Shown here in pieces: positions 5,143 through 58,211 of a stretch of DNA of 64,000 bases (positions are counted from its first letter, which is position 1; every line of letters starts with the position of its first letter). The DNA is from Leucoraja ocellata (Eukaryota). The stretch lies in contig JAWMAR010001602.1 of NCBI GenBank assembly GCA_036785375.1, positions 1-64,000 of the forward strand. Direction: 5' to 3'. Position numbers and translations under genes: made by a program. Below the pieces are notes generated by a model that had not been told where the DNA came from, ran no database searches, and saw only the letters and a program-made list of their open reading frames with translations.

Positions 5143-5181
5143 CACAGTGTTACATTCTACGGGCTTCCTCACACAATAACA
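5143..5181 (+). promoter_or_regulatory. J recombination signal sequence, 23-bp spacer
   Basis: CACAGTG 5143-5149, 23-nt spacer, nonamer ACAATAACA 5173-5181. Confidence 0.9.
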
Positions 5182-5508
5182 TGATCTGCACAAGGTAGGC
5201 AAAAAAGAACAAAAGTCCTGTAATTATTCGTATTTCACATCGAAGGTGAATGACATATTGCTCTTTGAAAACAATGAATGCGTTAAATAAATCATTTCCA
5301 ACAATAATCAGATGCCACGGCTCCGTGTATTAAACTGGGCAGTGAAATGTGATAAGAATTATCTACATATAAAATACAAATTACTTCAAGTTACCTATAC
5401 AACAAAATGTGCGAAAATATCCCTGGACATGTTTATGCTCTTGTTGTATGAAATATTGAATTGAAAATATCATATACTGGCCCAGACCACCGTATTATGG
5501 GTTGTGGA

Positions 5509-5576
5509 TGTTTTTGTATTGGTAGGAACCGCTGTGCCATCCAGTATACACAGTGAAACATACCATGTCAAATACC
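5509..5576 (-). other. IGHD: DH2 segment (TATACTGGATGG, 5537-5548) flanked by 12/12 RSSs
   Basis: On the + strand: TGTTTTTGT 5509-5517, 12-nt spacer, CGCTGTG 5530-5536; then CACAGTG 5549-5555, 12-nt spacer, TCAAATACC 5568-5576. Matches the shark IgM D2 12/12 layout. Confidence 0.92.
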
Positions 5577-5824
5577 TCGCTCTTCAAGAACTGGTGCATG
5601 TACTGCTCACAGACGATATGTCCCAGGAGACTCTTCGCTGTCACTTATACAGCTAAACGCTGTTCTTCTAAAGCTCATAAAATAACGTTAATTGGTCGGA
5701 AGGCAGTTGGACATTTCTCAAAACAATCCATGTAACTTTAAACGGTGACATTTTATTTGATTTTTCTTCACTGGGCCTCTCCTACGGTGCTTGTAGGTTG
5801 GAGCAGGAGAAAATTAGGTGTCAG

Positions 5825-5903
5825 GGTTTTTGTACGGGGAAGTCGCTGTTTGTAGCACCGTGACCCACTGTTGTACACAGTGAGACAGACCCGCACAAAA
5901 ACC
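5825..5903 (-). other. IGHD: DH1 segment (TACAACAGTGGGT, 5863-5875) flanked by 12 (V side) / 22 (J side) RSSs
   Basis: On the + strand: GGTTTTTGT 5825-5833, 22-nt spacer, CACCGTG 5856-5862; then CACAGTG 5876-5882, 12-nt spacer, ACAAAAACC 5895-5903. Matches the shark IgM D1 12/22 layout. Confidence 0.95.
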
Positions 5904-5985
5904 TCCCATACAGTTCACACTCAGGTTTCATTTGAAACGGCCTTCGATACGATTTTAAATGGTCCAGCAATTCACAGAGAACACA

Positions 5986-6053
5986 ATATACACAACACCA
6001 ACAATATAAATATACACAACACCAACAATATAAATATACACAACACCAACAAT
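5986..6053 (+). repeat. 24-bp tandem repeat (about 2.8 copies) in the V-D1 spacer
   Basis: ATATACACAACACCAACAATATAA at 5986, 6010 and 6034 (partial). Confidence 0.85.
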
Positions 6054-6297
6054 CTCCCTTCATCTCACTTGCATAATGGAATGAGCACATTTTCCTGGTC
6101 TATGGTTTTACGCAACGCCTATGGGTATGCGTGAAGCGAATATAAAAAAACTCACACGAATACGATGGTTACATTTTTGAATATCGTGTTGGATTTGTGA
6201 ATGGTACTTTGCCTCCATTTCCCGACTGTTATTATAGCTGTAGGAATAATTGCTCACCTCTAGTCTTTGATGGTAAAAGCTGGACTTCCCAACGTGC

Positions 6298-6336
6298 CGT
6301 TCTTGTACGGGTCTGACACTGAATGCTCACACTGTG
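6298..6336 (-). promoter_or_regulatory. V recombination signal sequence, 23-bp spacer
   Basis: Minus strand: CACAGTG (6336-6330), 23-nt spacer, ACAAGAACG (6306-6298). Confidence 0.92.
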
Positions 6337-6640
6337 TCGCTCGCACAGTAATAGACAGCCGTGTCTTCGATCTTCAGGCTGCTGGCCGTCACGATGAAGA
6401 TATTATTCGAATTGTCTTTGGACGGAGTAAATCGGCTCTCTATCCCCGGAGCGAAGTACTTGGTACCAGAATTGTAGTAAGTAAGCAGCCACTCCAGCCC
6501 CTGCCCGGGGACCTGACGGACCAAAGCCATATAGTAGCCGCTAACACTGAACCCGCTGGCTTTACAGTTCAGTGTGATGGAGCCTCCAGGAGTGGCCGTC
6601 TCTGTCTCGGGCTGGGTTAGAACGATATCGGAATGGACAC
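6337..6640 (-). CDS. IGHV: Ig heavy chain VH exon (open frame; conserved FR2 Trp replaced by Leu)
   Basis: Acceptor TTGCAG|GT at 6641. Translation: [100 protein letters not shown]. Both canonical Cys are present. Confidence 0.95.
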
Positions 6641-6814
6641 CTGCAAGTTAAAAACAAGGCATGAATGGCGAGGATAAAATATTGACCATTGATCCCCGAC
6701 TGTAATTATCAAGAGGAAATAAATTGGGAAGGTTCTAGAGTGGGTAGAAGGGGAATGGTGTAGTGGATACACCACTGGGAAACTTGCGTGGGGAATTTGT
6801 CCAACATTACTCAC

Positions 6815-42905: not shown

Positions 42906-43922
42906 AGTCAATAGACAATAGACAATAGGTGCAGTAGGCCATTCAGCCCTTCGAGCCAGCACCGCCATTCAAAGTGTTCATGGCTGATCATCCCCAATCA
43001 GTACCCCGTTCCTGCCTTCTCCCCATATCCCTTGACTCCGCTATTTTTAAGAGCCCTCTCTCTTGAAAGCATCCAGAGAACCCGCCTCTGAGGCAGAGAA
43101 TTCCACAGACTCACCACTCTCTGTGAGAAAAAGTGATTCCTCGTCTCCGTTCTAAATGGCTTACTCCTTATTCTTAAACTGTGGCCCCTGGACTCCGGAC
43201 TCCCCCAACATCGGGAACATGTTTCCTGCCTTTAGCGTGTCCAAACCCTTAACAATCTTATATGTTTCAATGAGATATCTTCTCATCCTTCTAAACTCCA
43301 GAGTGTACAAGCCCAGCTGCTCCATTCTCTCAGCATATGACAATCCCGCCATCCCAGGAATTACCTTGTAAACCTACGCCGCACTCCCTCAATAGCAAGA
43401 AAGTCATTCCTCAAATTAGGGGACCAAAACTGCACACAATGCTCCAGGTGTGGCCTCACTAGGGCTCTGTACAACTGCAGAAGGACCTCTTTGCTCCTAT
43501 ATTCGATTCCTCTTGTTATAAAGGCCAACATGCCATTTGTTTTCTTCACTGCCTGCTGTACCTGCATGCTCACTTTCATAGGCTGATGTACAAAGACCCC
43601 CGATCCCATTGTACTTCCCCTTTTCCCAACTTGACGCCAATTAGATAGTAATCCGCCTTCCTGTTTTTGCTACCAAAGTGAATAACCTCACATTTATCCG
43701 CTTTAAACTTAATCTGCCATGCATCTGCCCACTCACCCAATCTGTTCAAGTCACCTTGCATTCTCATAGCATCCTCCTCACAGTTCACACCAAAGATTAT
43801 AGAGGAGCAAGATAAACCACTCGACGAAAAAGCTGTAGTACGGTCATAGGCTCATGGGTAATTTTTTGCGCGCCATTTTGAGAATCATATATATGAGCGT
43901 TTTTTTTAAATGGGCTTCTATC

Positions 43923-45930
43923 ATGGCATCCACATCTACCAGCGTAGCGAGCTGTTCTGCTATAGTAAATGTAAGCGATTCAAGCACAAAATAGCAGTCT
44001 TTCTTCAGATTCCCCACTAAAGACAAAAGGTAAGAAAAAAATTATAACTTACTGTCTTGAGGCCGATCTCTTCCTATAGCTCAGATCGCGGAGCCGGGGG
44101 TCACCAGAAGAATTGCTCTGATCGCTGGCCCGCGGACTATAACACCCTGAAGCCGCGGTGTGTGGAGCTTCTAGTCGCGGGGGCAGCGTGCACTTTTTCT
44201 CGCAGAGTCTAGGATCCCTCGCCGGAGAAAAGCTCCGATCGCCGGCCCGCGGCCTATAACATCATGAAGCCCCGGTCTCCAGTAGGAAGCGGCCGATTCG
44301 CGACCTCCTAGCCGCGGAGATCCCGAATCGGCTTGTGTTTAAGCAGGTTTGAAATAGTGTTTAAAATACAGGATAAATGGTGTTAAATATTCACAACGTA
44401 CATGGATTAATGGTGTTTAAAATACATGATAAATGGTTAAATATACACAATGTACACGGATCAATGGTGTTTAAAATCTATATTACTAAATCTCTGATCT
44501 TGACCGCTTTTGGCCAACTGTGCTGCGATTTCTGAGAGAACGCCGCCACCTACGGCCGTCATTTTTGGCCACCTCGCTCAGAGCCCCGCTCTGCCATATG
44601 AGTGCGGAGGATTTTTTCCGTCGATGAAAAATGAGAGAGATATTAATGTTTTTACAAAATTCCCCATTCTCTCTGCTGCCCCCGCTGGCGTGTCGTGCCT
44701 CATTCAGTCTCTGCCAGACCAGGAAGCGAGAGGGTCACGGCTCTGAGCTGCGAATAACACTGAACGCACATCTACTCCACAGTGAGTCCTCTCGATGCAA
44801 CTTTAAAGTGGCTGCAGCCTTTTTTTTAACAAGTTTGTGTTCGCAAAATGAATTTTGGTTGTCGGGTGTCTGCAGCCCAATTGTTTGCCTTGACTTGGCT
44901 TTTAAAATCGTTTCAACAGTTGGATGCCTGCTCAAGCATCCATACGGCCCACAATGTCTATACTAGCCCTCTGGAAACCAGTGTCTTCGGCCCGCAACAC
45001 CCATACTAGCGCAATAGACAGCCTTCCCCCACCCCCCCCCCCCCCACTGGCGAGCAGTATTGGAATTGGTGGAGAGGTGGAATATTGCGTTGGTGACCAG
45101 CCCTCCCGTGTGATGCTGGGACCCAACGGGTCCCACTTAGTCTAGTACATGATAAATGGTGTTGTAGGGAACAACGACAAGCCACGAGGAACACACATTA
45201 AAGCCTTAATTTCCTTCCCAATGTATGATGACCGTAACATATATCATTCTATTCTTATGATCCCGACAATGTATTATATTATATAAGACATTTTTTGGTA
45301 CATGAGCAAGTTATTAGAAAGTCTTCTTTTATAGATATAGACTTAGCACAATAATAAAGGTAGACAAAAATGCTCCAGCTCCATAAGAATTTCTCCAGCA
45401 TTTTTGTCTACCTTCGATTTTCCAGCATCTGCAGTTCCTTCTTAAACAATAATAAGGGTATCAATTTTTACACTGCTGTACATTTTTGGTTTTGTTCTTG
45501 TCGTAAGGCAGGCATGGTATTGTAAGCTCTTCTACATTTAAGTTAAATCAAGTCAAGTCAAGTCAAGAGAGTTTATTGTCATGTGTCCCAGATAGGACAA
45601 TGAAATTCTTGCTTTGCTTCAACACAACAGAACATAGGAGGCATGAATACAGACTTTATTCAGTAGGCATAAATTGACCTACAAGAGGAAAAATGCATCT
45701 TCAATATACATGTCTCTCCCCATCCCTGAAAACAATTGCATTTAAGTGACATATCATCCATTCTGCAGTTATGTAGTTATAATCAGATTTGTTCTTATAA
45801 GTTAATTCTATATGATATGTTACTGTAATTTCAGATGTTGACAGTGGGTCCAGAATACTCGTTGATAAGATCTCCTACAGCGAACTATGGAGTACTTGTC
45901 AAAGAACTGCCGTCTTTGTTCTGAACACTC
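43923..45930 (+). pseudogene. Decayed two-exon THAP zinc-finger domain (transposase N-terminus)
   Basis: Exon 1 (43923-44029): MASTSTSVASCSAI...*QSFFRFPTKDK-R, donor GTAAG. Exon 2 (from 45835, after TTTCAG): C*QWVQNTR**DLLQRTMEYLSKNCRLCSEH. THAP hallmarks C, FFRFP, W and CxxH are present and the splice phases match. Confidence 0.8.
44477..45145 (+). mobile_element. Non-autonomous Helitron (669 bp)
   Basis: 5' TC (TCTATATTACTAAA), 3' hairpin GGGACCC-AAC-GGGTCCC (45118-45134) then CTAG. Inserted between A and T without a TSD; removing it restores the local repeat unit GGTGTTTAAAATACATGATAAATGG. Confidence 0.88.
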
Positions 45931-46516
45931 TGTATATCTCACACATAAAACAATAAATTATGTAAATCTTACCATAAATGACAGAAATAAAAAGTGTTAT
46001 CCTTGTTTATGAATTTTGTTGTAGAATTATTTAAAATTGAGTGGCTTGATGCAATATACTGCTAACCCACAAATGTTTAGTTATGAGATATTCACATTTA
46101 AAAACTCACTCAGAGTTCGGGTGGCTGCCGGGCCCGGACAGTGGAACCGCAGCGAGACCCGGGGCTCGCAGGTGACCTGGGAACTGCAACTAGTCCTGGA
46201 GGGTCCTGGCCCCTGTGCAAAAAAGGCTGCGGACCCCTGGACTAAACCAAACCCTCGATCCTCTCCCGCCATCCTTTTTTCAAAATTTAGCAACTCAAAT
46301 GGTGGTGCGTCTTCATTGCCGGGAAATAGGGTAACTCATTTCCCTCAAATATATGTAAATTTCCCTCAAATATATGTTAAATTAAAAACTAAACTATGGT
46401 AGCAATGCACAGTTTTCATGTCTAATGCTCGCACTTCTGCATCAATGTAGGTATGTATACACTATATTACTTTACTAATATAGAATGAAAAAATATCTTG
46501 GCATGTGTTCATTTAT

Positions 46517-49500
46517 ATTTTACTTCGGAGTCACGTGAGTGACTACATGAAGAACCCGCCAGTACGCATGCGTATCATTATTGCTACACACATTGCAACG
46601 TCATTGGGGGAAGGAAGGACGTTCCTCCCAAACGGCAGGTTTGGAACCTACAACAGTAGGTAAGAGAACTTTGTTTCTTTTTTACTTACCTTTGTTTACA
46701 GGAAGGCTGTGGAAAGCTGGCGTGGGAGAGCTGCTATATAGGAGCAGGCAGCCAGCAACGGCCGGTGGCACGACAATCTCCCTTGGCGGGAGCCGGTGCG
46801 ACTTCAGCTCCAGCAAGGGTACGGGTCGCCGACAACCGATGGAGCACTCGGGAGCCGTCAATCTGATGATTCGGAAAAGCCCAAGGACCTACAGGGTAAG
46901 GAGCGCTACATGGGTCCGTGGGGCTGAGAAATAAAAATAGCAGCGAGCGGTCGTTGCCCGTGAGCACCGGGTACGCGTTGGAGCTGCTGGGCCTGCGTCG
47001 CGAGCGTCCAGTTCCCCGAGAGGACTGCACCGCATTGGAGCACAGCAGGCCCACGTGGGAAAGGAGCGGCACAGTGCAGAGCACTGCACCGCGTCAAAAC
47101 CACCATACCTGCGGTTGCGAGCGGCCAGCTCCCCGAGAGGACTGAACCGCGTTGGAGCACTGCAGGCTAACGGTACTACGGGTGGCTCAGTGCCGTGAGC
47201 ACTGCACCGCGCTTTGGAGCACCGCAGGCCAACGGCACTACAGGGGACTCAGTGCCCTGAGCACTGCAACGCGTTGACACTGCGGGACCTGCACCTGCGA
47301 GAACATACCGCGTTTGCAGCGATGCAGGTCCAAAAAAGAAGAACAAATCCTCGAGTGGGTAACTCCCATGGCAGCACCTTATACAGGGCTGTATCTCACT
47401 TCTACTATTACAGGGAAGTGCTGGAGGAAAAGACAGACTTAGGGAGAAGGAAGCAGCACCTTTTCTTAGGGCTATAATCATGCTTCTCTCCATCCAGTAG
47501 ACTCTTTTGTCAGAAGAGTGCTGGGGTCAAGTCTAGGGCAAACCCTGGACAGGTAAACAGATGTAAGAGATGCTTTTTCTAAGTCACAAAGTACATAGAG
47601 TGCATTATTGGTCTTTTCCTGATAGAAATACAGGAATACTTATGTTGTGACTGAAGGATTTAGCAGACCAAAAATTTACTGACAAATTCCATTCCCATCT
47701 GGGAAGTCACATGGGAATGTCTGTCTATATTTCACGGGGAACAACAGTACAGATGTGAGTAAAGCTAACTGGGAAAGATCTACAAACCAGGTTAGAAGCC
47801 AGCATAGACCATATGTTTTCTATCTACTGCAGGGGAAAGCATTAGCTGACACCATAGCGGTCACTTGCCACTGGGGATTGTAAATCCCTGAATGTAATAA
47901 ACTAATCAATTTATGCATCTGGTTACATCCAACCGGGATTGACACGGGCCTGTGTAAACCCGAAACCTCCTAGCAATATTTTTTTATTTGGAGGTGACCA
48001 ATCTAGAAGGTCAAGGAGTTGGACAATGAAGCCAAATTGGAGCTCATCTAAACGTCCAAACATCATCCTCAAAGGTATCGCCCCTATATCTGAAGATGTG
48101 TACACCCACAACACACGGCCTCGGGGATCCAGATGACAACAGTAAAACCAGAAGGAAGCAAGGAGGTTGGTGCGAGAAGACATTGAATAAATAATTTTTT
48201 GACACTCGTATCTTAAACAGTATCCGGGAATACACAATAGAATTTTACAACACATAATCTTCTAGTCCAGCTGATATATCGAGAGAGGAATTTGGAGGAG
48301 AACACCAAATGGATATTGGGCTATAGTATTTGCTGATGTTTCTACACGATATGGAACACCAGATGCCGATCTACTCGTATCCAGACATAATCACCAATTA
48401 CCAAATATGTCATATGGGATACAGACACTGGACATCAGCAACGGATGGGTTTTAGCTGCATTGTAAGGGAAGAATTATTATCTACGCATTCCTTTCCTAA
48501 CAAAATAGGATATGGCGCTTGACGCATCAAACATAGATCAGATCTCGGCTTTTTGGCCAAGATCAAGCATAATATCTGGGTTTTTATCAGTTTAAATATC
48601 TGATGTCCCTTATCTAGGGACCATATATTAAAAATAAATAAATAAATAAAATTAATAATACGATATATTCGTTAAGAACGGAAACCTTTTCTATTGTTAA
48701 GTATATTCGTTTTAAGAACGAAAATGGCAAGCATTGATTCAAAGGATGCTTACTATTTTCAGTACCCATAACAGGTGACCACGGACGTTATTTTATCTAA
48801 TTGGATGGCTCAGCTCTAGCAGTATAGAGCACTACCTAATGTGTTTACATTAGCACCTAGGTTATTTACAAAATATAACAACCAGCCACACAATGGTAAT
48901 GGCTTCTTTGGATGACATACTAATTGTGCAGAACTTAGGACGGGCTGAACAAACGGTAACAGCCCTTTAACAATTATTTGGAAACTAGGATTCATTATCC
49001 ATCCAATTAAATCAAAATTAAAGCCTTCAAACTAAAGGGATTATTTGGGGTTCACCAATAACTCAGTTCCTCATGTCAGTAACTTTGCCAACAGAGGTTA
49101 CAATCTTAATAAAGGCATACAGCAAAATCATTGACATGAGGATAAACCATTCATCAGACTGGTAGCAAGAATTTTGGCAACAGGTGGTACTGGGAATATG
49201 GGTTCCAGCCACATAATTCAGACCCTTACATTATAAAGATTTACAGAGGGCCAAAATATGAGCTCTTAAAATTAATGGTGATCATTTCGATAGAATGATG
49301 AAGCCATATTGGAACTAAATGGTGGAAAGATAACATTGGGCATTGCTCCAATCCTATCATTGTCAGCAACCAGTCTATGGTCCTACATATGCATGCTATG
49401 CACTAGGATGGTGTGTTACCAATTCCATCTCCAGCTGTGGAGGAAGATGGAATACACAGGAAGCATCATTATTACAAACACTGGGCATAACTACCTGGAA

Positions 49501-51223
49501 ATGTTGGGTGTTTTTTCATGGCCTAAAGTCATGTTGCTCTGGAATATGTTAAACAGGTTATTATAGATTATAAATTAACAATACTACTGTGGTAGCACAT
49601 ATCAACTGTGGTAGCACATGGGTAAAAGGGAATCTACATCATGTAACAATCTGGCCAACACAATTTGGCAACCTCATCAGTAGGGGTGTTTTTAATAGTA
49701 CCCCACTGACCTACCCAACCATGGTTCTCGGTGCTACTGGGAATGAGATTAGAACCATGCAGCACCATCCTAAACAGACGATGAAGTATGGGGAAAACCA
49801 CCCGTGCCATGAACATATAAATCGCATAAATCATAGAGTCTGAAAGCGCAACTATTACATCTGCGGCTGACGGCCAGAGCAATGGACATGATCACAGTGG
49901 GCCACAGACAATCAACCTAAAGACAATGTCTAAAATACATAAACTAATGGGAGATGTGTTGCAACCATAATACATCATCCAGCCTGTTTGGCAGCTTTGT
50001 TAACCTACAGGCGCTTAGTATTAGTGATATCAACTGTGCCAGAAGTGGTCCATCTACTTACCTATGGCAAGAGAACGGAACAACAGCTTATGGGGGACAC
50101 TTTTATGGGAATTCCCCAAAGACCAGGTATTCCCAAATACGGGACATCAGCATCGTCTTAACGTTGTTAAAGAACTGGGCTCCAGCCACAGCGCTGTCAT
50201 TACAGTTTTTTTGACATTTTACAAAACTGTCATGCTGATGGCTTAGGTCACGGCACTAAGGACTCAGTCCCTACCAAATTAAGACTGGATAACTAGACCA
50301 GTTCACCTGGCAACTTACACTTCTATATTCAGGAGTTAGGGAACTAAACAGACAGGGGTCAGCGGGCCTTAAAATAACATTTTTAGAGCCTACCCTACAG
50401 ATGATTGCCTGTTGTGAGACATCTACAAATATACATGGAACAAACCAAGACCATCAGTGGCACAGAAGAGGAACTTCTCATCAACTACAGACAGCCTCAT
50501 TAAAGAATAACAGGCCAGGCCAGCTAAATGGCTAACATAGTATTGACCAAAGTTGGTGTAAACACTAACTTGGTTAAAATCTCACTCCACCAGGCTGCAG
50601 CAACGTCGGCAGCATTTAAATTGGAGGTTTTCCTATGGATAAAATCCTCAGGACTGCAGGATGGCCATCGGAAAGAACATTCTAAAGATTATAACAAACC
50701 AATAATGGAAACAGGAAATTTTCAGAAATATTGTTAAGTTTCTGTACCATAATATACCCCAAAAAACAGGGGCTATCAATTATTATTAACTTTATGGTTA
50801 TTTATATATATCATATTGATGTTTAATATGTTATCACTATTCTCCCCATAACCAAGGCAGACATGATGATCCACGGCTTGAATCACAGAGCTTTGAAATC
50901 TTCATGTAGTCACGCACGTGACTCCGAAGTAAAATAGTAAGATTAAACGAGAACTTACCAGTTCGAAGTTTGATCTGTATTTTATGAGGAGTAACGTTGA
51001 GGGAATACATGCCCTCCGCTCCCACCCTTGATCATAAACACGACTGGTATCTTTTTCTCTAATCTTACTATGCTTAAGTCATTACAGGTATCTGTGATTC
51101 ACACTGCTGCTTTGAACAATGACACGCATGCGTACTGGCGGGTTCTTCATGTATTCCCTCAACGTTACTCCTCATAAAATACAGATCAAACTTCGAACTG
51201 GTAAGTTCTCGTTTAATCTTACT
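46517..51223 (+). mobile_element. DIRS-type retrotransposon with decayed coding regions and near-perfect termini (putative non-autonomous)
   Basis: Left end ATTTTACTTCGGAGTCACGTGAGTGAC; ICR 50899-51011 complementary to the left end (36/37) and to the right extension 51148-51223 (76/76); ITR 46546-46579 vs 51118-51151 (33/34). Broken gag, RT, RH, MT and YR remnants are homologous to the intact neighbour. Confidence 0.92.
48537..48632 (+). pseudogene. RNU2: 3'-truncated U2 snRNA pseudogene with an (AAAT)n tail, inside the DIRS RT remnant
   Basis: ATCAGATCTCGGCTTTTTGGCCAAGATCAAGCATAATATCTG...TTATCAGTTTAAATATCTGAT...CATATATTAAA aligns with about nt 1-95 of U2 as recalled. The branch-site-pairing GTAGTA is mutated and the fragment ends before the Sm site. 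Confidence 0.88.
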
Positions 51224-51693
51224 ATTTTATTCACAATGATAGGATTTCAGAGAGGTTGAATGAATGAAAAAAAAGTTCAACAAAATTAGATCACAAGAAA
51301 GAAACTCGAGAAACATACATATGTGTGTGTTATATATTTAAATACATATATATCACATATATACGCATCATATTTACATACATATACATCACATATATAT
51401 ACACGCATCATATATATATATATATATATGATGCGCATATATGTGTGATGTATATGTGTATATATGATGCATATATGTGTGATATATATGTATATAATTT
51501 TACTTCGGAGTCACGTGAGTGACTTCGTGAAGAAGCCCGCTCAGGGCGCAGGTGCGGCATTACGCCAGCAAGTGCAACAGCGGCGGCAGCTGGAGTCAGG
51601 CTCTCCAGCTGCACTTTAAAAGCGCACTTTCAGGTAAGTGAAGGGTGCGTTGGGAACGGAGCGAGTAGGAGTTGGTTTTTGTTTCAGGAAAAC

Positions 51694-52929
51694 ATGTCCC
51701 AACGCAAGAGACTCGCGACCAGAGCTGCCCGAGCTTTAACTCCGCCAGAGGAGTCTATTCCAGCGGGGCAGCAGCCAGCGGCACTACCGCTGGAACAGCG
51801 GTTTGAGATTCCTCAGACCGAGCCGGGCCCAGTCACGCCAGAGCCTACACGGCGGGCTGGGAAAGCCACCTGTAAAACTAACCGGCCGGTCGATTCCGAT
51901 TCGTTGGAGGAGGACATGTCCACCCCCAAGCTGGGGAGAGACAGCCGCTTAAGCAGCATCATGCAGCTGCTGGAGGGGATGGTCTACCGGGAGCAGCAGC
52001 GCTCTCGGTCAGACAGGACAGGCGCCCCCTCCATGGTGCTGAGTCCGGCACCCCCCTTTGCGACCTCGGACCAGGACTGGGAGGTCAGCATCGGTGACCA
52101 GGAGCAGGCTGGTCTGAATATGGGGCAGGCGGAAGGTACCGACAAAGAGCAGGGTGTGCAGGAAGAGCTGCTAGGGGTAGTAACACGATTCGTTGCTACC
52201 CCACGGGTTGGAGCACCACTGCAACCTAGAATGGCTGCAAGTATCAATCATCTATCAAATAAGCCATTGCAGGAAAAGGTGCTCGCCCAAGTGCTGGACG
52301 AGCACATCGCCCCAGACAACTGTGAAGCCCTGAAGGTCAAGAGCCTCAACCCTCAGATATGGGGTAACGTGGGTGGACCTATCCGCACTCAGGAGGTCAA
52401 ACTGCAGCGGGTACTTCGCCTCCTGATGGCGGCGATAACAGCATACGTACGGGGAGTCGAGACCACAGAAATGACAGCTCATCAACAGGATGTCTTGGCG
52501 CTCATGTGCACCACGCAATACGAGCTGAACAATCTCAGGAGAGATAACATTAGGCCGGCACTGAATCCTAAATTTGCAGGATTGTGTAAGGCTCCCACTG
52601 TAGAGACCGACTCATTTCTTTTTGGAAAAGATTTAAATAAACAACTGAAAGAAATGGAGGAGGCTTCGAAAACCTTTAGCCTCATGAGGGCAACACCGCC
52701 AGCACCTGTACCGAAGCTTTTTATAACACCAAGGCGGCAGCACACCGCTGCATCCACCAGTCGGCATCATCCATATGCGACTGGTCAAAGCTTGGGGCCG
52801 CACTATCCCCAGAAACCTTTTTTAGGTCAGGGCCTGCAGCGGACCCCCTGGAAAATGCGCCTCCCCCCAACATCGCCAGCTCGTCAACAGAAAACATCCA
52901 AAAAGAGAAAACCTCAACCCCGCCAATAA
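51694..52929 (+). CDS. DIRS ORF1, gag-like protein (411 aa from the first ATG)
   Basis: Long open frame upstream of RT with a basic C-terminus. The track start at 51679 is TTG; the first ATG is 51694. Confidence 0.85.
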   Translation: MSQRKRLATRAARALTPPEESIPAGQQPAALPLEQRFEIPQTEPGPVTPEPTRRAGKATCKTNRPVDSDSLEEDMSTPKLGRDSRLSSIMQLLEGMVYREQQRSRSDRTGAPSMVLSPAPPFATSDQDWEVSIGDQEQAGLNMGQAEGTDKEQGVQEELLGVVTRFVATPRVGAPLQPRMAASINHLSNKPLQEKVLAQVLDEHIAPDNCEALKVKSLNPQIWGNVGGPIRTQEVKLQRVLRLLMAAITAYVRGVETTEMTAHQQDVLALMCTTQYELNNLRRDNIRPALNPKFAGLCKAPTVETDSFLFGKDLNKQLKEMEEASKTFSLMRATPPAPVPKLFITPRRQHTAASTSRHHPYATGQSLGPHYPQKPFLGQGLQRTPWKMRLPPTSPARQQKTSKKRKPQPRQ

Positions 52930-52931
52930 CC

Positions 52932-54863
52932 ATGGAGGTAGGTGGATCTGGTTCCTACCCGCATATTGTGAATAAGGGTGAATTACTAACAGGGGGAAGG
53001 TTACGCTTATTTACAAAAGCATGGGGGAGGATCACAGATGATAAATATATACTTAATAGTATTCAAGGTTATAAAATAGAGTTTATTTCGAGTATACCGC
53101 CAGTTCAACACATGCCTAAGAGGACATTTGTACTCTCCAACAAACAACAACTGGAGGGACAAGCTGAACTGGTAAGGCTTATAAACAAAGGGGTCATAGG
53201 AAAAACTATTCATGAGCCCTTGGAATTTGTTTCCAATATATTTACTAAATGTAAAACGGATGGTGGATGTCGCATCATCATTGACTTAACATCCTTGAAT
53301 GTGTTTGTTAAGTATATACATTTCAAAATGGAAACATTTGCGACTGCTAGACAATTGATTTTCAAAGGATACTATATGGCCAGCATCGATCTCAAAGATG
53401 CTTACTATCTAGTACCGATACATAAAGATTATAGCAGATATCTTAAATTTATCTGGATGGGGGAGCTTTGGCAGTATAAAGCACTGCCTAATGGGCTTAC
53501 TTCAGCTCCAAGACTATTCACTAAAATATTGAAGCCAGCCATGGCAATGTTAAGGAAACAAAACCATATAGTCATGGCATATTTGGACGACATCCTCATA
53601 GTTGGGAAAACTATGGAATTGGCTGTAGCAGCAGTATCAGCTACAAAACAGCTCCTAGAAACTCTAGGGTTTGTCTTACATCCAGATAAATCCAAGTTAA
53701 ATCCATCCACAATTATGGACTACTTGGGGTTCACAATTAACTCAGTCCAAATGACGATTACCATGCCAAGGGAAAAAATGATTGCATTAACACAATCATG
53801 TGAAAACTTAAAAGTAAAGAGAAAGCCAACTATTCGACAAGTGGCTGCAGTAATTGGAAAAATGGTAGCAGCTTTTCCAGCTATCCAATTTGGACCTTTG
53901 CACTATCAAAATTTGCAAAGAGCAAAGATAATAGCATTAAAATGGCACAGAGGTCATTATGATCGGATTATGACTATACCCCCTGAAGCAATAGCAGAGC
54001 TACAGTGGTGGATTCAATATATTTGGCATGGTTATAGTCCTATAGTTATCACTAATCCTACGTTAGTAATCCAAACCGATGCTAGTGCTCAAGGCTGGGG
54101 AGCAACTAACTCCATATCCAGCACAGGTGGTAGATGGACTAACTCAGAATCCTCATTACTATCTACACTGGGCATTAACACTTTGGAAATGTTGGGCGCC
54201 TTTTATGGTTTGAAAGCATATGCGTCTGATATGCGTCACTTGCATGTTAGATTAGAAATAGATAATACAACGGTGGTGGCTTATATTAACCATATGGGCG
54301 GCATCAAATCTTTATCATGCGACAAATTGGTTAATATGATTTGGCAATGGTGTGTCGAAAGACATATTTGGCTTTCAGCTACCTATCTACCAGGTAAGCT
54401 AAACATAGTGGCGGACACCAGGTCACGGAAATTCAATGATAACATCGAATGGATGTTAAATCCTAAAACATTTGCTAAAATTGTAAAGCAATATGGGAAG
54501 CCAGATATAGATTTATTTGCATCAAGACTGAATCACCAACTACCAGTCTATGTCGCGTGGGAACCAGATCCGGAGGCAGCAGCGGTAGACGCTTTTACGT
54601 TAGATTGGGGAAAGTTTGTGTTTTATGCTTTTCCCCCCTTCTGCCTCATTAGTCGGGTGCTTCGAAAAATCCAGACGGATTCAGCGTCTGGAGTTTTGGT
54701 GGTGCCCGACTGGCCTACACAGACATGGTTCCCAATTCTCCAGGACATGGTGGTGGAAACACCTATGGTATTCCCCAGTCATCCAGGGTTACTGACTCAC
54801 CCAGTATCAGGCATCAGCCACCCATGCCACAAAGATATGAATCTCCTGGGTTGCAGATTTTAA
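52932..54863 (+). CDS. DIRS ORF2: reverse transcriptase, RNase H and adenine-methyltransferase-like domain
   Basis: GGRL, DLKDAY, LPNGLTSAPRLF and YLDD; RNase H TDAS..GWG, LEM, DNTT and ADTRSR; MT DLFAS...YAFPPF...VPDWPTQTWF. Start context ACCATGG. Confidence 0.96.
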   Translation: MEVGGSGSYPHIVNKGELLTGGRLRLFTKAWGRITDDKYILNSIQGYKIEFISSIPPVQHMPKRTFVLSNKQQLEGQAELVRLINKGVIGKTIHEPLEFVSNIFTKCKTDGGCRIIIDLTSLNVFVKYIHFKMETFATARQLIFKGYYMASIDLKDAYYLVPIHKDYSRYLKFIWMGELWQYKALPNGLTSAPRLFTKILKPAMAMLRKQNHIVMAYLDDILIVGKTMELAVAAVSATKQLLETLGFVLHPDKSKLNPSTIMDYLGFTINSVQMTITMPREKMIALTQSCENLKVKRKPTIRQVAAVIGKMVAAFPAIQFGPLHYQNLQRAKIIALKWHRGHYDRIMTIPPEAIAELQWWIQYIWHGYSPIVITNPTLVIQTDASAQGWGATNSISSTGGRWTNSESSLLSTLGINTLEMLGAFYGLKAYASDMRHLHVRLEIDNTTVVAYINHMGGIKSLSCDKLVNMIWQWCVERHIWLSATYLPGKLNIVADTRSRKFNDNIEWMLNPKTFAKIVKQYGKPDIDLFASRLNHQLPVYVAWEPDPEAAAVDAFTLDWGKFVFYAFPPFCLISRVLRKIQTDSASGVLVVPDWPTQTWFPILQDMVVETPMVFPSHPGLLTHPVSGISHPCHKDMNLLGCRF

Positions 54864-55834
54864 ACCGACCTTACCTGGATCTGGGGCTATCGGAACAAAC
54901 CATCGCCACCATGTCAGCATCCCTACGGATATCCACGAAGAGGCAGTACCTAACCTGCATCAAAAAATGGGAAACGTACTGCCAGAAAACCGGGATTGCT
55001 TATAAAACGGCCACAGTAGCGGATGTTCTGGAATTCCTGGCAGACTTACATCATCGTGAAGATTTGAGCTACAGTGCCATCAACACGGCACGTAGTGCTC
55101 TTTCAAATTACCTCGAACCTGCGGGACATCAGGCCATGGGAGCCCATCCGCTGGTGGTAAAACTGATGAGGGGCATATTTAACAGCAAGCCCCCCACCCC
55201 GAGATATACAAAAATCTGGGATGTCAGTGTTGTACTAACATACCTTCGGGACAGACCACCAGCCAGATCTCTCAGCTTAGAGCAGTTGACTTTAAAAACA
55301 CTCATGCTCATGGCGCTAGTATCTGCACAGAGGGTCCAGTCCTTACATAAACTTCGACTGGACAACATGGACACTACATCGGATCAGATCACATTCACTA
55401 TTCAAGGTCTGATAAAACAGTCCAGGCCAGGAACATCAAACACGCTAGTGGCATTCCGGGCATACCCACTAGAGCCACGATTGTGTGTGGTGACCCACAT
55501 AAATATTTACATAGACACTACCCATAACATCAGAGGAAGTGAGAGAGCCTTATGGGTCAGCCACAGGAAACCACATGGCAGGGTAACAAGTCAAACCATT
55601 TCAAGGTGGTTGAAACAGGTTTTGGAAGCTGCTGGAATTAACATTAATCTGTTTAAATCTCATTCCACCAGGGCAGCATCCACATCATCGGCGGCCAGAA
55701 TGGATGTGCCTGTGGACTTAATCCTCAAGAAAGCAGGATGGTCACGGGAAGCCACATTCCGAACATTTTATAATAAACCGTTGGTGGAACCTGATATATT
55801 TGCAGTCAGCATTTTAGAAACTGCAAATGTTTAA
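54725..55834 (+). CDS. DIRS ORF3: tyrosine recombinase
   Basis: SAQR (catalytic R), HSTRAAS (HxxR) and AGW...TFRTFYNK (W and catalytic Y); overlaps ORF2 by 139 nt. Confidence 0.94.
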   Translation: MVPNSPGHGGGNTYGIPQSSRVTDSPSIRHQPPMPQRYESPGLQILNRPYLDLGLSEQTIATMSASLRISTKRQYLTCIKKWETYCQKTGIAYKTATVADVLEFLADLHHREDLSYSAINTARSALSNYLEPAGHQAMGAHPLVVKLMRGIFNSKPPTPRYTKIWDVSVVLTYLRDRPPARSLSLEQLTLKTLMLMALVSAQRVQSLHKLRLDNMDTTSDQITFTIQGLIKQSRPGTSNTLVAFRAYPLEPRLCVVTHINIYIDTTHNIRGSERALWVSHRKPHGRVTSQTISRWLKQVLEAAGININLFKSHSTRAASTSSAARMDVPVDLILKKAGWSREATFRTFYNKPLVEPDIFAVSILETANV

Positions 55835-58211
55835 TTTAAAGCCCGGGGGAGCTATTTTTTCTTTTGTTATTGTTAATAAATACCGTTTTGTTTTCAAAAC
55901 AGATTCATTGGTTGATTACAATAACACTTCCTTCCTCAAGAGCTTTCGGTAGTGAGTGTATAAACTGTTACACGGTTTGAAATCACAGAGCTTTGAAATC
56001 TTCACGAAGTCACTCACGTGACTCCGAAGTAAAATAGTAAGATTAAACGAGAACTTACCAGTTTGAAGTTTGATCTGTATTTTATGAGGAGTTACGATGA
56101 GGGATTACGTGCCCTCCGCTCCCACCCTCATTACATGGATCAAACCGATAAATTGATGTCTCTTTGTTCTTTACTATGTTACTTCAAATACGTGTCTGTC
56201 TGTGATTCCACACCGCTGCTTGGAAGCATGCCGCACCTGCGCCCTGAGCGGGCTTCTTCACGTAATCCCTCATCGTAACTCCTCATAAAATACAGATCAA
56301 ACTTCAAACTGGTAAGTTCTCGTTTAATCTTACTAATATATAACACACATACATATTTCTCGAGTTTCTTTATATATATATAAACATATATTCATTATAT
56401 ATATATATATATATATAATGTGTTTATATATATATAAGAAACTAGAGAATTATGTATGTGTGTTATATAATTATATACATCAATATCACATTTATATATC
56501 TGTGTATCATGTATATAATATATGTGTTTATAATATATAAATATAGGCAAATATATTGGCTTATGGCTTATGTTCCTTATATCTTATAGCAAAATATAAA
56601 GGCGAATATAATTGTCTTTATGGCTTATGTACTTCATGAGAATGGCTCATGTACATCATAAGTTGCTTTAAATCAAAGTTACTTCTGGTCCATGAGGAAC
56701 TTTGAAATATATTATCTATATCTTGCCACTCACACACAGAAACATACACATACCGTTCCCCCACAACACTGATTAAACAAAAGATCATAGAATTCATATG
56801 GTCCAGAGAGCTTTCATTGAGCATTGTTGCTCATTTTATACGCAGTTTCCCTTTTTAATTTTTGTTTTTAGAGGAGCACCTTATTTATTATCAACAAAGA
56901 TAATAATGGTCTAACATGGAAGGCTAAGAGACCAAGATAAACTACAAAATCCAATAGACTGATGTGGATTAAACTGCGAGAGGCAGAACGGAGATCGGGG
57001 TCTTATTCCTAAAATGGCGGAAGTGACGTTCCGTGATGTTCCGATCCGTACTACACGTCAGCCCATTGGATTTCGTAGGAGTGGTCTATCTTGCTCCTCT
57101 AGTATCTTTGGTTCACACTGCCACCCATCGTTGTGTCATCTGGAAATTTGCTAATGTTACTTTGAATCCCTTCATCCAAATCATTGATGTATATTGTAAG
57201 TAGCTGCGGTCCCAGCACCGAGCCTTGCGGTACCCCACTAGTCACTGCCTGCCATTCTGAAAGGGACCCCGTTAATCCCTACTCTTTGTTTCCTCTCTGC
57301 CAACCATTTCTCTATCCATGTCAGCACTCTACCCCCAATACCATGTGCCCTAATTTTGCCCACTAATCTCCCTATGTGGGACCTTATCAAATGCTTTCTG
57401 AAAGTTCAGGTACACTACATCCACTGGCTCTCCCTTGTCCATTTTCCGAGTTACATCTTCAAAAAATTTCAGAAGATCTGTCAAGCATGATTGCCCCTTC
57501 ATAAATCCATGCTGACTCGGACCGATCCTGTTACTGCTATCCAAATGTTCGGCTATCTCATCTTTTATAATTGACTCCAGCATCTTCCCCACCACCGATG
57601 TCAGGCTAACTGGTCAATAATTCCCTATTTTCTCTCTCCCGCTTTTCTTAAAAAATGGGATAACATTAGCTACCCTCCAATTAACAGAAACTGATCGTGA
57701 GTCTAAAGAACATTTGAAAATTATCACCAATGCATCTACGATTTCTAGAGCCACTTCCTTAAGTACCCTGGGATGCAGACCATCGGGCCCTGGGGAGTTA
57801 TCAGCCTTCAGTCCCATCAGTCTACCCAACACCATTTCCTGCCTAATGTGGATTTCCTTCAGTTCCTCCATCACCCCAGATCCTCTGGCCACTACTATAT
57901 CAGTAAGATTGTTTGAGTCCTCCTTAGTAAAGACAGATCTAAAGTACCTGTTCAACTCATCTGCCATTTCTTTGTTCATCAGAGGTGTGAATCTGTGGGA
58001 TTCTCTGCCAGAGGAGGCAGTGGAGGTCAAGTCACTGGATGTTTTCAAGAGAAAGTTAGATTTAGCTCTTAGCACTAACAAATTCTAGGGATATGGAGAA
58101 AATGCTGGTACTGATTTTGGATGCTCTGCAATGATCATATTGAATGGTGGTACTGGCTTGAAGGGCCGAATGGCCTACTCCTGCACCTAATTTCTATGTT
58201 TCTATGTTTCT

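Follow-up and report, generated by a model that had tools for sequence, protein, structure and literature searches.

How a long interspersed nuclear element (LINE) came to be split by a 13.3-kb insert, and how much of that insert ever moved, is the question raised by a 64-kb stretch of skate DNA (Leucoraja ocellata, contig JAWMAR010001602.1, positions 1 to 64,000; hereafter the window). An earlier note on this DNA had described the insert as a P-element-like transposon of that full size, enclosing a Helitron and two DIRS retrotransposons. Our analysis points with high confidence to a single insertion of a ~3-kb non-coding P-superfamily transposon, probably mobilised by a transposase that intact relatives in the genome encode, later nested by a Helitron-type insert and two DIRS elements, and copied together with an immunoglobulin heavy chain (IgH) minilocus. 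This reading is built on the ends of the element, its target site duplication (TSD), a THAP relic, ends and exons common with coding elements, the nested inserts and their order among paralogues. The window element itself is a P derivative that is dead, and its nesting is ordinary.

The terminal structures reported by the earlier note were all recovered, namely the 8-bp TSD GTTCACAC on both sides, terminal inverted repeats (TIRs) starting with CAAAG and identical at 29 of 32 positions, and the mirrored subterminal motifs TGTAGTACGG and CGCCATTTT, found exactly where they had been placed and occurring, like each mirror image, just once in the window. TIRs beginning with CA together with subterminal sites are features of the P superfamily. 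Almost all of 14 further two-ended copies retain both motifs at equivalent positions, and these are putative binding sites, likely for the transposase or a host factor; CGCCATTTT (43871 and 57011) resembles a site for YY1, a factor reportedly acting on the TIRs of lancelet ProtoRAG (PMC7481187). When the insert and one TSD were removed in silico, a continuous reverse-transcriptase-like reading was restored over the junction. The clean split of the LINE was thereby upheld, whereas its CR1 label, presumed from motifs, received no Pfam match on the fragments flanking the insert.

These TIRs define a family rather than a chance resemblance, since exact 30-bp matches number 527 genome-wide against none for a reversed control. 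Searching the genome with both ends produced 1819 (left) and 1520 (right) first-look candidates, 40 being scored for each, and 40 loci with distant family copies were retrieved in two samples of 20. Both TIRs lay inside the retrieved stretch at 22 of the 40 loci, four of which repeat the site of another locus, and TSDs matching at 7 or 8 of 8 positions, with sequences differing between sites, flank 16 of these 22; other TIR-bounded copies with 8-bp TSDs thus exist. Because uninterrupted copies measure 2.6-3.2 kb (85-95% mutual identity) and bear TSDs of their own, the mobile unit is a ~3-kb non-autonomous element. The 13.3-kb transposon of the earlier note is therefore real as an insert (43791-57110), but only ~3 kb of it represents the mobile unit, the remainder being local nesting. 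At loci L030, L040 and L032, two family members were also observed next to each other or nested in inverted orientation, consistent with local hopping.

The window copy retains two decayed THAP exons. Pfam searches on these pieces alone gave matches below the cut-off (exon 2: 15 bits, E 0.042) or no match, but tblastn aligned exon 2 (72% over 32 aa, E 1e-9) and exon 1 (46% over 37 aa, E 0.001) with the THAP domains of intact relatives, bearing out the decayed THAP domain noticed earlier. No transposase core, with its split RNase H, GTP insertion and D/D/E residues, was detected in the window element by tblastn, as expected for a non-autonomous copy with a deleted core. Elsewhere in the genome, 137 matches to PF21787 and 84 to PF21789 were obtained (among 150 candidates scored each), many of them in open frames of 700-890 aa. 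The P-type RNase H N, GTP-binding and RNase H C domains were present in four of four long frames tested, and THAP exceeded the Pfam cut-off in exon 2 of the relatives (4/4); these transposases carry all four Pfam P domains, with D/D/E kept. The sole PDB match is the Drosophila P transposase 6P5A (E 1.7e-41), in which the catalytic and GTP-contact positions D230, D303, E531, K385 and D444 (manual numbering) align to the same residues. Related CAAAGAT TIRs and a perfect 8-bp TSD bound 9 of the 20 coding loci examined, and THAP exons 1 and 2, splice sites included, are common to the coding relatives and the window element (up to 82% over 262 bp in the exon 2 region). P transposases are thus encoded by relatives that agree with the window element in their ends, TSD length and THAP exons, and the four frames gave no hAT family match. 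On these sequence grounds the window element is a member of the P superfamily and not a hAT, as the earlier note had favoured, a membership established through its relatives as its own core is absent. The same note had called the family invisible among open reading frames, which holds for this subfamily only, its relatives having frames of 770-890 aa.

The rest of the insert was traced among the duplicates of the locus. Near-identical end matches (96-100%) amounted to 16 on the left and 18 on the right, and since the LINE flank and the TSD are common to all 18 near-identical loci checked, these matches do not represent new jumps. A VH gene lies 24-57 kb from the P insertion, in the same orientation, in 17 of 17 paralogues (37 kb separate the element from the downstream IgH minilocus in the window), and 18 P-linked VH genes are found among the 20 best VH matches (of 40 at ≥75% identity); shared insertion and linkage indicate one P insertion copied with the IgH cluster lineage. 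The minilocus layout (VH-D-D-JH) and the best named recombinase match (Leucoraja erinacea, 74%) support a cartilaginous-fish host, in agreement with the elasmobranch family proposed from the letters alone.

Three elements are nested in the core. Non-autonomous Helitrons are recognised by a 5' TC, a 3' hairpin plus CTRR and insertion between A and T with no TSD; the Helitron-type insert displays these structural hallmarks, and its ends recur in unrelated loci. DIRS no. 2 combines inverted terminal repeats (ITRs), an internal complementary region (ICR), the reverse transcriptase, RNase H and methyltransferase (RT-RH-MT) and tyrosine recombinase (YR) modules and no TSD, as in DIRS1-like elements, with three overlapping open frames (51523-52929, 52680-54863 and 54653-55834); Pfam matched the reverse transcriptase and the recombinase, and the RNase H and methyltransferase weakly, below the cut-off. 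DIRS no. 1 has the same ends and no frame of 150 aa, and the U2 fragment that it holds is present in all seven paralogues with this element. Clean empty sites occur among the 17 paralogues for DIRS no. 1 (10/17) and DIRS no. 2 (16/17), so that the 13.3-kb size reflects local nesting and not cargo; paralogues also hold further inserts of their own. Both DIRS elements hence postdate the insertion and the onset of the regional duplication, against the suggestion that the transposon carried them, and the pair was found in none of the retrieved copies with a different TSD. The sequence of events would have been the LINE, the P insertion, the Helitron-type insert and the first duplications (18 copies found), followed by DIRS no. 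1 with the U2 fragment (8 copies) and by DIRS no. 2 (2 copies), the DIRS elements presumably entering by tyrosine-recombinase exchange at ATT-type sites, without duplication.

Several points count against this picture. The Helitron-type insert may have come before or after the P insertion. No collinear full-length parent of the window subfamily was found, its similarity to coding elements being patchy, and TIR likeness is what points to the transposase that would have moved the window element. Some paralogues are possibly alleles or assembly duplicates (C611a, 99.1-100% identical).

Table 1. Coordinates of the features of the locus, in window positions.
Feature	Position	Strand	Details
Left 8-bp TSD copy	43783..43790	+	GTTCACAC
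Right 8-bp TSD copy	57111..57118	+	GTTCACAC
Non-autonomous P-superfamily element	43791..57110 (13,320 bp)	+	~3.1-kb core and ~10.2 kb of nested inserts
5' TIR, 32 bp	43791..43822	+	
3' TIR, 32 bp	57079..57110	-	
5' subterminal motifs	43834..43879	+	TGTAGTACGG at 43834, CGCCATTTT at 43871
3' subterminal motifs, mirror of 5' end	57011..57055	-	reverse complements: TGTAGTACGG at 57046, CGCCATTTT at 57011
Decayed THAP exon 1	43923..44029	+	runs from ATG to GT donor; contains one stop; some zinc ligands lost
Non-autonomous Helitron-type insert, 669 bp	44477..45145	+	5' TC, 3' hairpin and CTAG, site between A and T; 17/17 paralogues
Decayed, truncated THAP exon 2	45835..45932	+	no catalytic core after exon 2
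DIRS1-like retrotransposon no. 1, decayed	46516..51229	+	7/17 paralogues; empty site in 10
5'-part U2 snRNA pseudogene with A-rich tail	48537..48647	+	57 bits, E 1e-8; in pol region of DIRS no. 1
DIRS1-like retrotransposon no. 2	51497..56337	+	ITRs, ICR; 1/17 paralogues
Interrupted LINE, both sides of insertion	43400..57500 (tested stretch only)	-	presumably CR1-like
Germline IgH minilocus VH-D1-D2-JH	5143..6647	-	signal spacers 23 / 12,22 / 12,12 / 23

The nesting of two DIRS elements in one P copy had led to the idea of a landing pad, and a true preference of DIRS for the P family beyond base composition appears to us improbable. In its favour, the first sample contained three DIRS events in 40 kb of core against three in 426 kb of background (p 0.01, about tenfold), and the paralogues show DIRS to have entered the core on no fewer than three separate occasions. 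However, the second sample (20 loci) did not repeat this excess, with one event inside and three outside, and the pooled comparison with local flanks (4 inside, 5 in flanks) gave a ratio of 2.3 (p 0.18), about what is expected of an A+T-rich core (64% A+T, with an ATTWW density 1.8 times the background). DIRS1-like elements are described as inserting at ATT (PMC3266345), and the 3' junctions begin with ATT in 17 of 17 cases here. Moreover, this DIRS family is common, with 22,670 exact end or ICR matches in the genome, no DIRS ends lie inside the retrieved coding elements, and 0 of 14 sampled DIRS 5' ends adjoin the P family, a count of low power. The landing-pad claim is thus weak: special DIRS targeting of the P family is not shown, and a mild excess is compatible with these counts.

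The P family also appears to have left marks at sites where no element remains. Exact TIR-TIR junctions with both arms of at least 14 nt number 543 genome-wide against none in the control, and those with one arm of at least 19 or 21 nt number only 10 and 2, respectively. Among the 35 scars retrieved of 50 listed, 32 are flanked by a TSD at ≥6/8, compared with 0/35 shifted controls. The length distribution of these scars has peaks at 31 and 34, a reading of 18+18 fits several junctions of 36-37 bp, and most scars keep 14-18 nt per TIR, as after a P-type staggered cut; the long stagger leaving ~17-nt TIR tips that characterises the P superfamily is thereby found indirectly, and these junctions hint that it may be 18 nt rather than 17. 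For the fly P transposase, 17-nt TIR tails are described as staying on the donor site (PMC7776569), where they are fused by end joining between the TSDs (PMC2895639, Table 1), and the donor-site junctions reported for Drosophila P have the same structure as the skate scars (PMC2895639). We consider it quite unlikely that the 31-39-bp TIR-TIR units are instead tiny self-mobile elements or random internal deletions: one 36-bp type does recur within P elements with the same flanks (3/35), so that the 543 are not all independent events, but random deletions would have no reason to end at 18 nt within a TIR of 32 bp, microhomology and small insertions differ from junction to junction much as in fly repair products, and the units are devoid of subterminal motifs. 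We found no publications on vertebrate scars of this kind. Among 29 scars, the TSDs favour a palindromic pattern, with T at position 2 (45/58) and A at position 7 (47/58). Furthermore, in four 10-12-kb coding elements (L062, L063, L077 and L079, on C376, C561, C59 and C191), an additional fragment of THAP exon 1 lies towards the 3' side and fixed 36-bp TIR-TIR scars lie close to either end, a layout which suggests that P elements have jumped into, and back out of, other P elements.

Two remaining alternatives can be dismissed briefly. Some hATs have 8-bp TSDs and THAP, and the window copy lacks a catalytic core for comparison, but a THAP-bearing hAT or another superfamily with 8-bp TSDs is most improbable, as every long frame tested that follows these ends and THAP exons is P-type, the four long frames give no hAT family match (a genome-wide hAT profile search was not made), and TIR tips are retained in the scars of this family, whereas hairpin-forming hATs are not known to leave any. 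The idea of the 13.3-kb composite as a vehicle, present or past, that moved with DIRS as its cargo gains some appeal from its intact TIRs with numerous near-identical matches and from the perfect TSDs of the 10-12-kb coding relatives (large units can bear clean ends), but is hardly credible given the flank and TSD shared by 18 of 18 loci, the clean empty sites, and the different sites and orientations of DIRS in other copies.

Beyond the ~3-kb derivative nested in the window, the coding relatives are candidates, from their sequences, for a working vertebrate P transposase. Joining exon 1 to exon 2 and, through a GC donor, to the core exon in silico yielded complete frames at 5 of the 7 loci for which all exon parts were located, of 882 aa (C376, C561 and C424) or 927 aa (C649 and C294), and the donor context GCAAGTAA is kept in 12 of 12 loci inspected for it, across subfamilies ~79% identical. 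A further short exon, following exon 2 and preceding the core, was considered and rejected, no donor/acceptor pair yielding an open frame. Copies with differing TSDs reach 99.3% identity over 5.2 kb (C376 and C59), with 96.5-98% in a second subfamily, indicating that mobility is recent on the scale of this genome. Two side observations concern this group: L061 (G000 C1483:67000-69500) encodes an 843-aa open P transposase frame for which only a 3' TIR was found and the THAP exon was not located; a database cluster of 32 sequences (677 aa) is almost identical to this frame, in which several conserved motifs are altered, making it a possible domesticated or fixed copy. In addition, ~10 short divergent P-transposase fragments are clustered on one contig (G000 C392:1429000-1625000).

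RNA contigs, compared with the C649 copy as reference, suggest how these relatives may be regulated. Intron 1 is skipped at GT-AG in contigs of X6, X7, X13 and X18 (probable-RNA runs from three studies, X6 and X7 belonging to one) and in one raw X24 read, and this joint is absent from the DNA run X3. In X6 and X7, a distal GT donor located 300 nt past the GC site is joined to the core exon, and contigs of X13 and X18 also cover the extension beyond the GC site. The distal-donor form stops a few bases past the GC site, giving 128 aa with THAP and a short tail. In the parents of the window element, a weak GC donor would thus produce the full transposase and the distal GT donor the 128-aa THAP-only protein. 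In flies, the unspliced intron 3 is described as giving a THAP-bearing repressor (PMC7776569), and the simplest reading, by analogy, is that the 128-aa form parallels it; alternatively, this form would be decay-bound noise only, the transcripts would originate from other copies or related species, or the core would be translated from a downstream start. No publications on a GC-AG splice switch of this kind were found. As a mechanism, a transposase with THAP, helix-turn-helix (HTH), RNase H and GTP domains would cut each end with a 17-18-nt stagger and insert with an 8-bp duplication, end joining leaving TIR-TIR scars at donor sites. That the skate hosts a recently mobile and competent P family, which excises and integrates with an 18-nt stagger and whose GC/distal-GT splice switch (882-927-aa transposase or 128-aa THAP-only repressor) evolved separately from that of the fly, is a tentative proposal, possible rather than probable. 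The scar pattern demands arms of at least 14 and leaves shorter scars uncounted, and TIR positions 17-18 are self-complementary, because of which staggers of 17 and 18 nt are indistinguishable. The GC-donor joint of the full-length protein was not among the joints listed for seven RNA or probable-RNA runs, which is not proof of absence. These runs come from an organism with about 0.4 of the words in common, which is perhaps a relative; most are contigs with guessed RNA status, none of the listed runs that contain the coding element being recorded as RNA.

The closest documented system is the P element of Drosophila melanogaster (6P5A/6PE2; PMC7776569), described with the same 8-bp TSD, ~31-32-bp TIRs and THAP-HTH-split RNase H architecture with a GTP domain; the D/D/E residues and the GTP contacts also agree, and both systems have derivatives with internal deletions, donor scars that retain the TIR tips, and a shortened splice product that keeps THAP. 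By contrast, the skate TIR sequence differs, its gene has three exons with the core in one and a longer C-terminal part, its stagger may be 18 nt where that of the fly is 17, and its switch seemingly opposes a GC to a distal GT donor (128 aa), where the fly retains intron 3 (66 kDa). In the literature consulted, zebrafish is the only vertebrate with mobile P-like elements (PMC10983969); its THAP9/Pdre system likewise has TIRs, 8-bp TSDs and internally deleted copies, but is described with 13-bp TIRs, one full-length gene and ~50 copies, and zfTHAP9 as excising without integrating in assays (PMC10983969, PMC7776569). The skate family instead has 32-bp TIRs, hundreds of copies, more than 100 transposase-domain matches, five copies open when spliced, and independent insertions up to 99.3% identical. 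It is not of the domesticated THAP9 type, single-copy and devoid of TIRs, as the relatives are multi-copy and bounded by TIRs and TSDs. No protein named THAP9 appeared in the best 120 homologues of the skate transposase; in the Atlas, a THAP9-named cluster stood at 0.97, as one of several equal ones, and the homologue tree was a quick tree of unnamed homologues, with no THAP9 or fly row. The DIRS elements agree with DIRS1-like retrotransposons as described in PMC3266345 (ITRs, ICR with a 3-bp junction, overlapping gag, RT-RH-MT and YR frames, ATT target, no TSD), differing only as an abundant family.

Chondrichthyans have been called poor in DNA transposons on the basis of the elephant shark (PMC4350176, PMC5381603), and we found no publications on cartilaginous-fish P elements or on this family; Repbase and Dfam lay outside the scope of this search, so that an entry in these libraries is possible. 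New in this analysis are the order of nesting, the tie between the insertion and duplication of the IgH cluster, and the putative splice switch. Complete-looking transcribed copies and scars would provide a vertebrate P transposase to test directly, scars would record the natural cut geometry and germline repair, and the splice switch, if true, would be a possible second case of splice-controlled P repression.

Cartilaginous-fish IgH miniloci are described as VH-D1-D2-JH units within 2 kb, in many clusters more than 100 kb apart (PMC2435157), as is the unit of the window; here, in addition, 18 clusters fall into nested groups by the nested-transposon marker that they share, the inserts serving as presence/absence markers that order 18 minilocus duplications. 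Concerning the genes themselves, the VH of the window has Leu at the position of the conserved Trp expected in the WVRQ motif, with signal sequences that look intact, and may be a pseudogene. Finally, G000 C611:333248-346569 is mostly 99.1-100% identical to the window over the element region and its linked VH only 85% identical in amino acids, a mismatch that may reflect rapid change of the VH, gene conversion or a segmental exchange of recent date.

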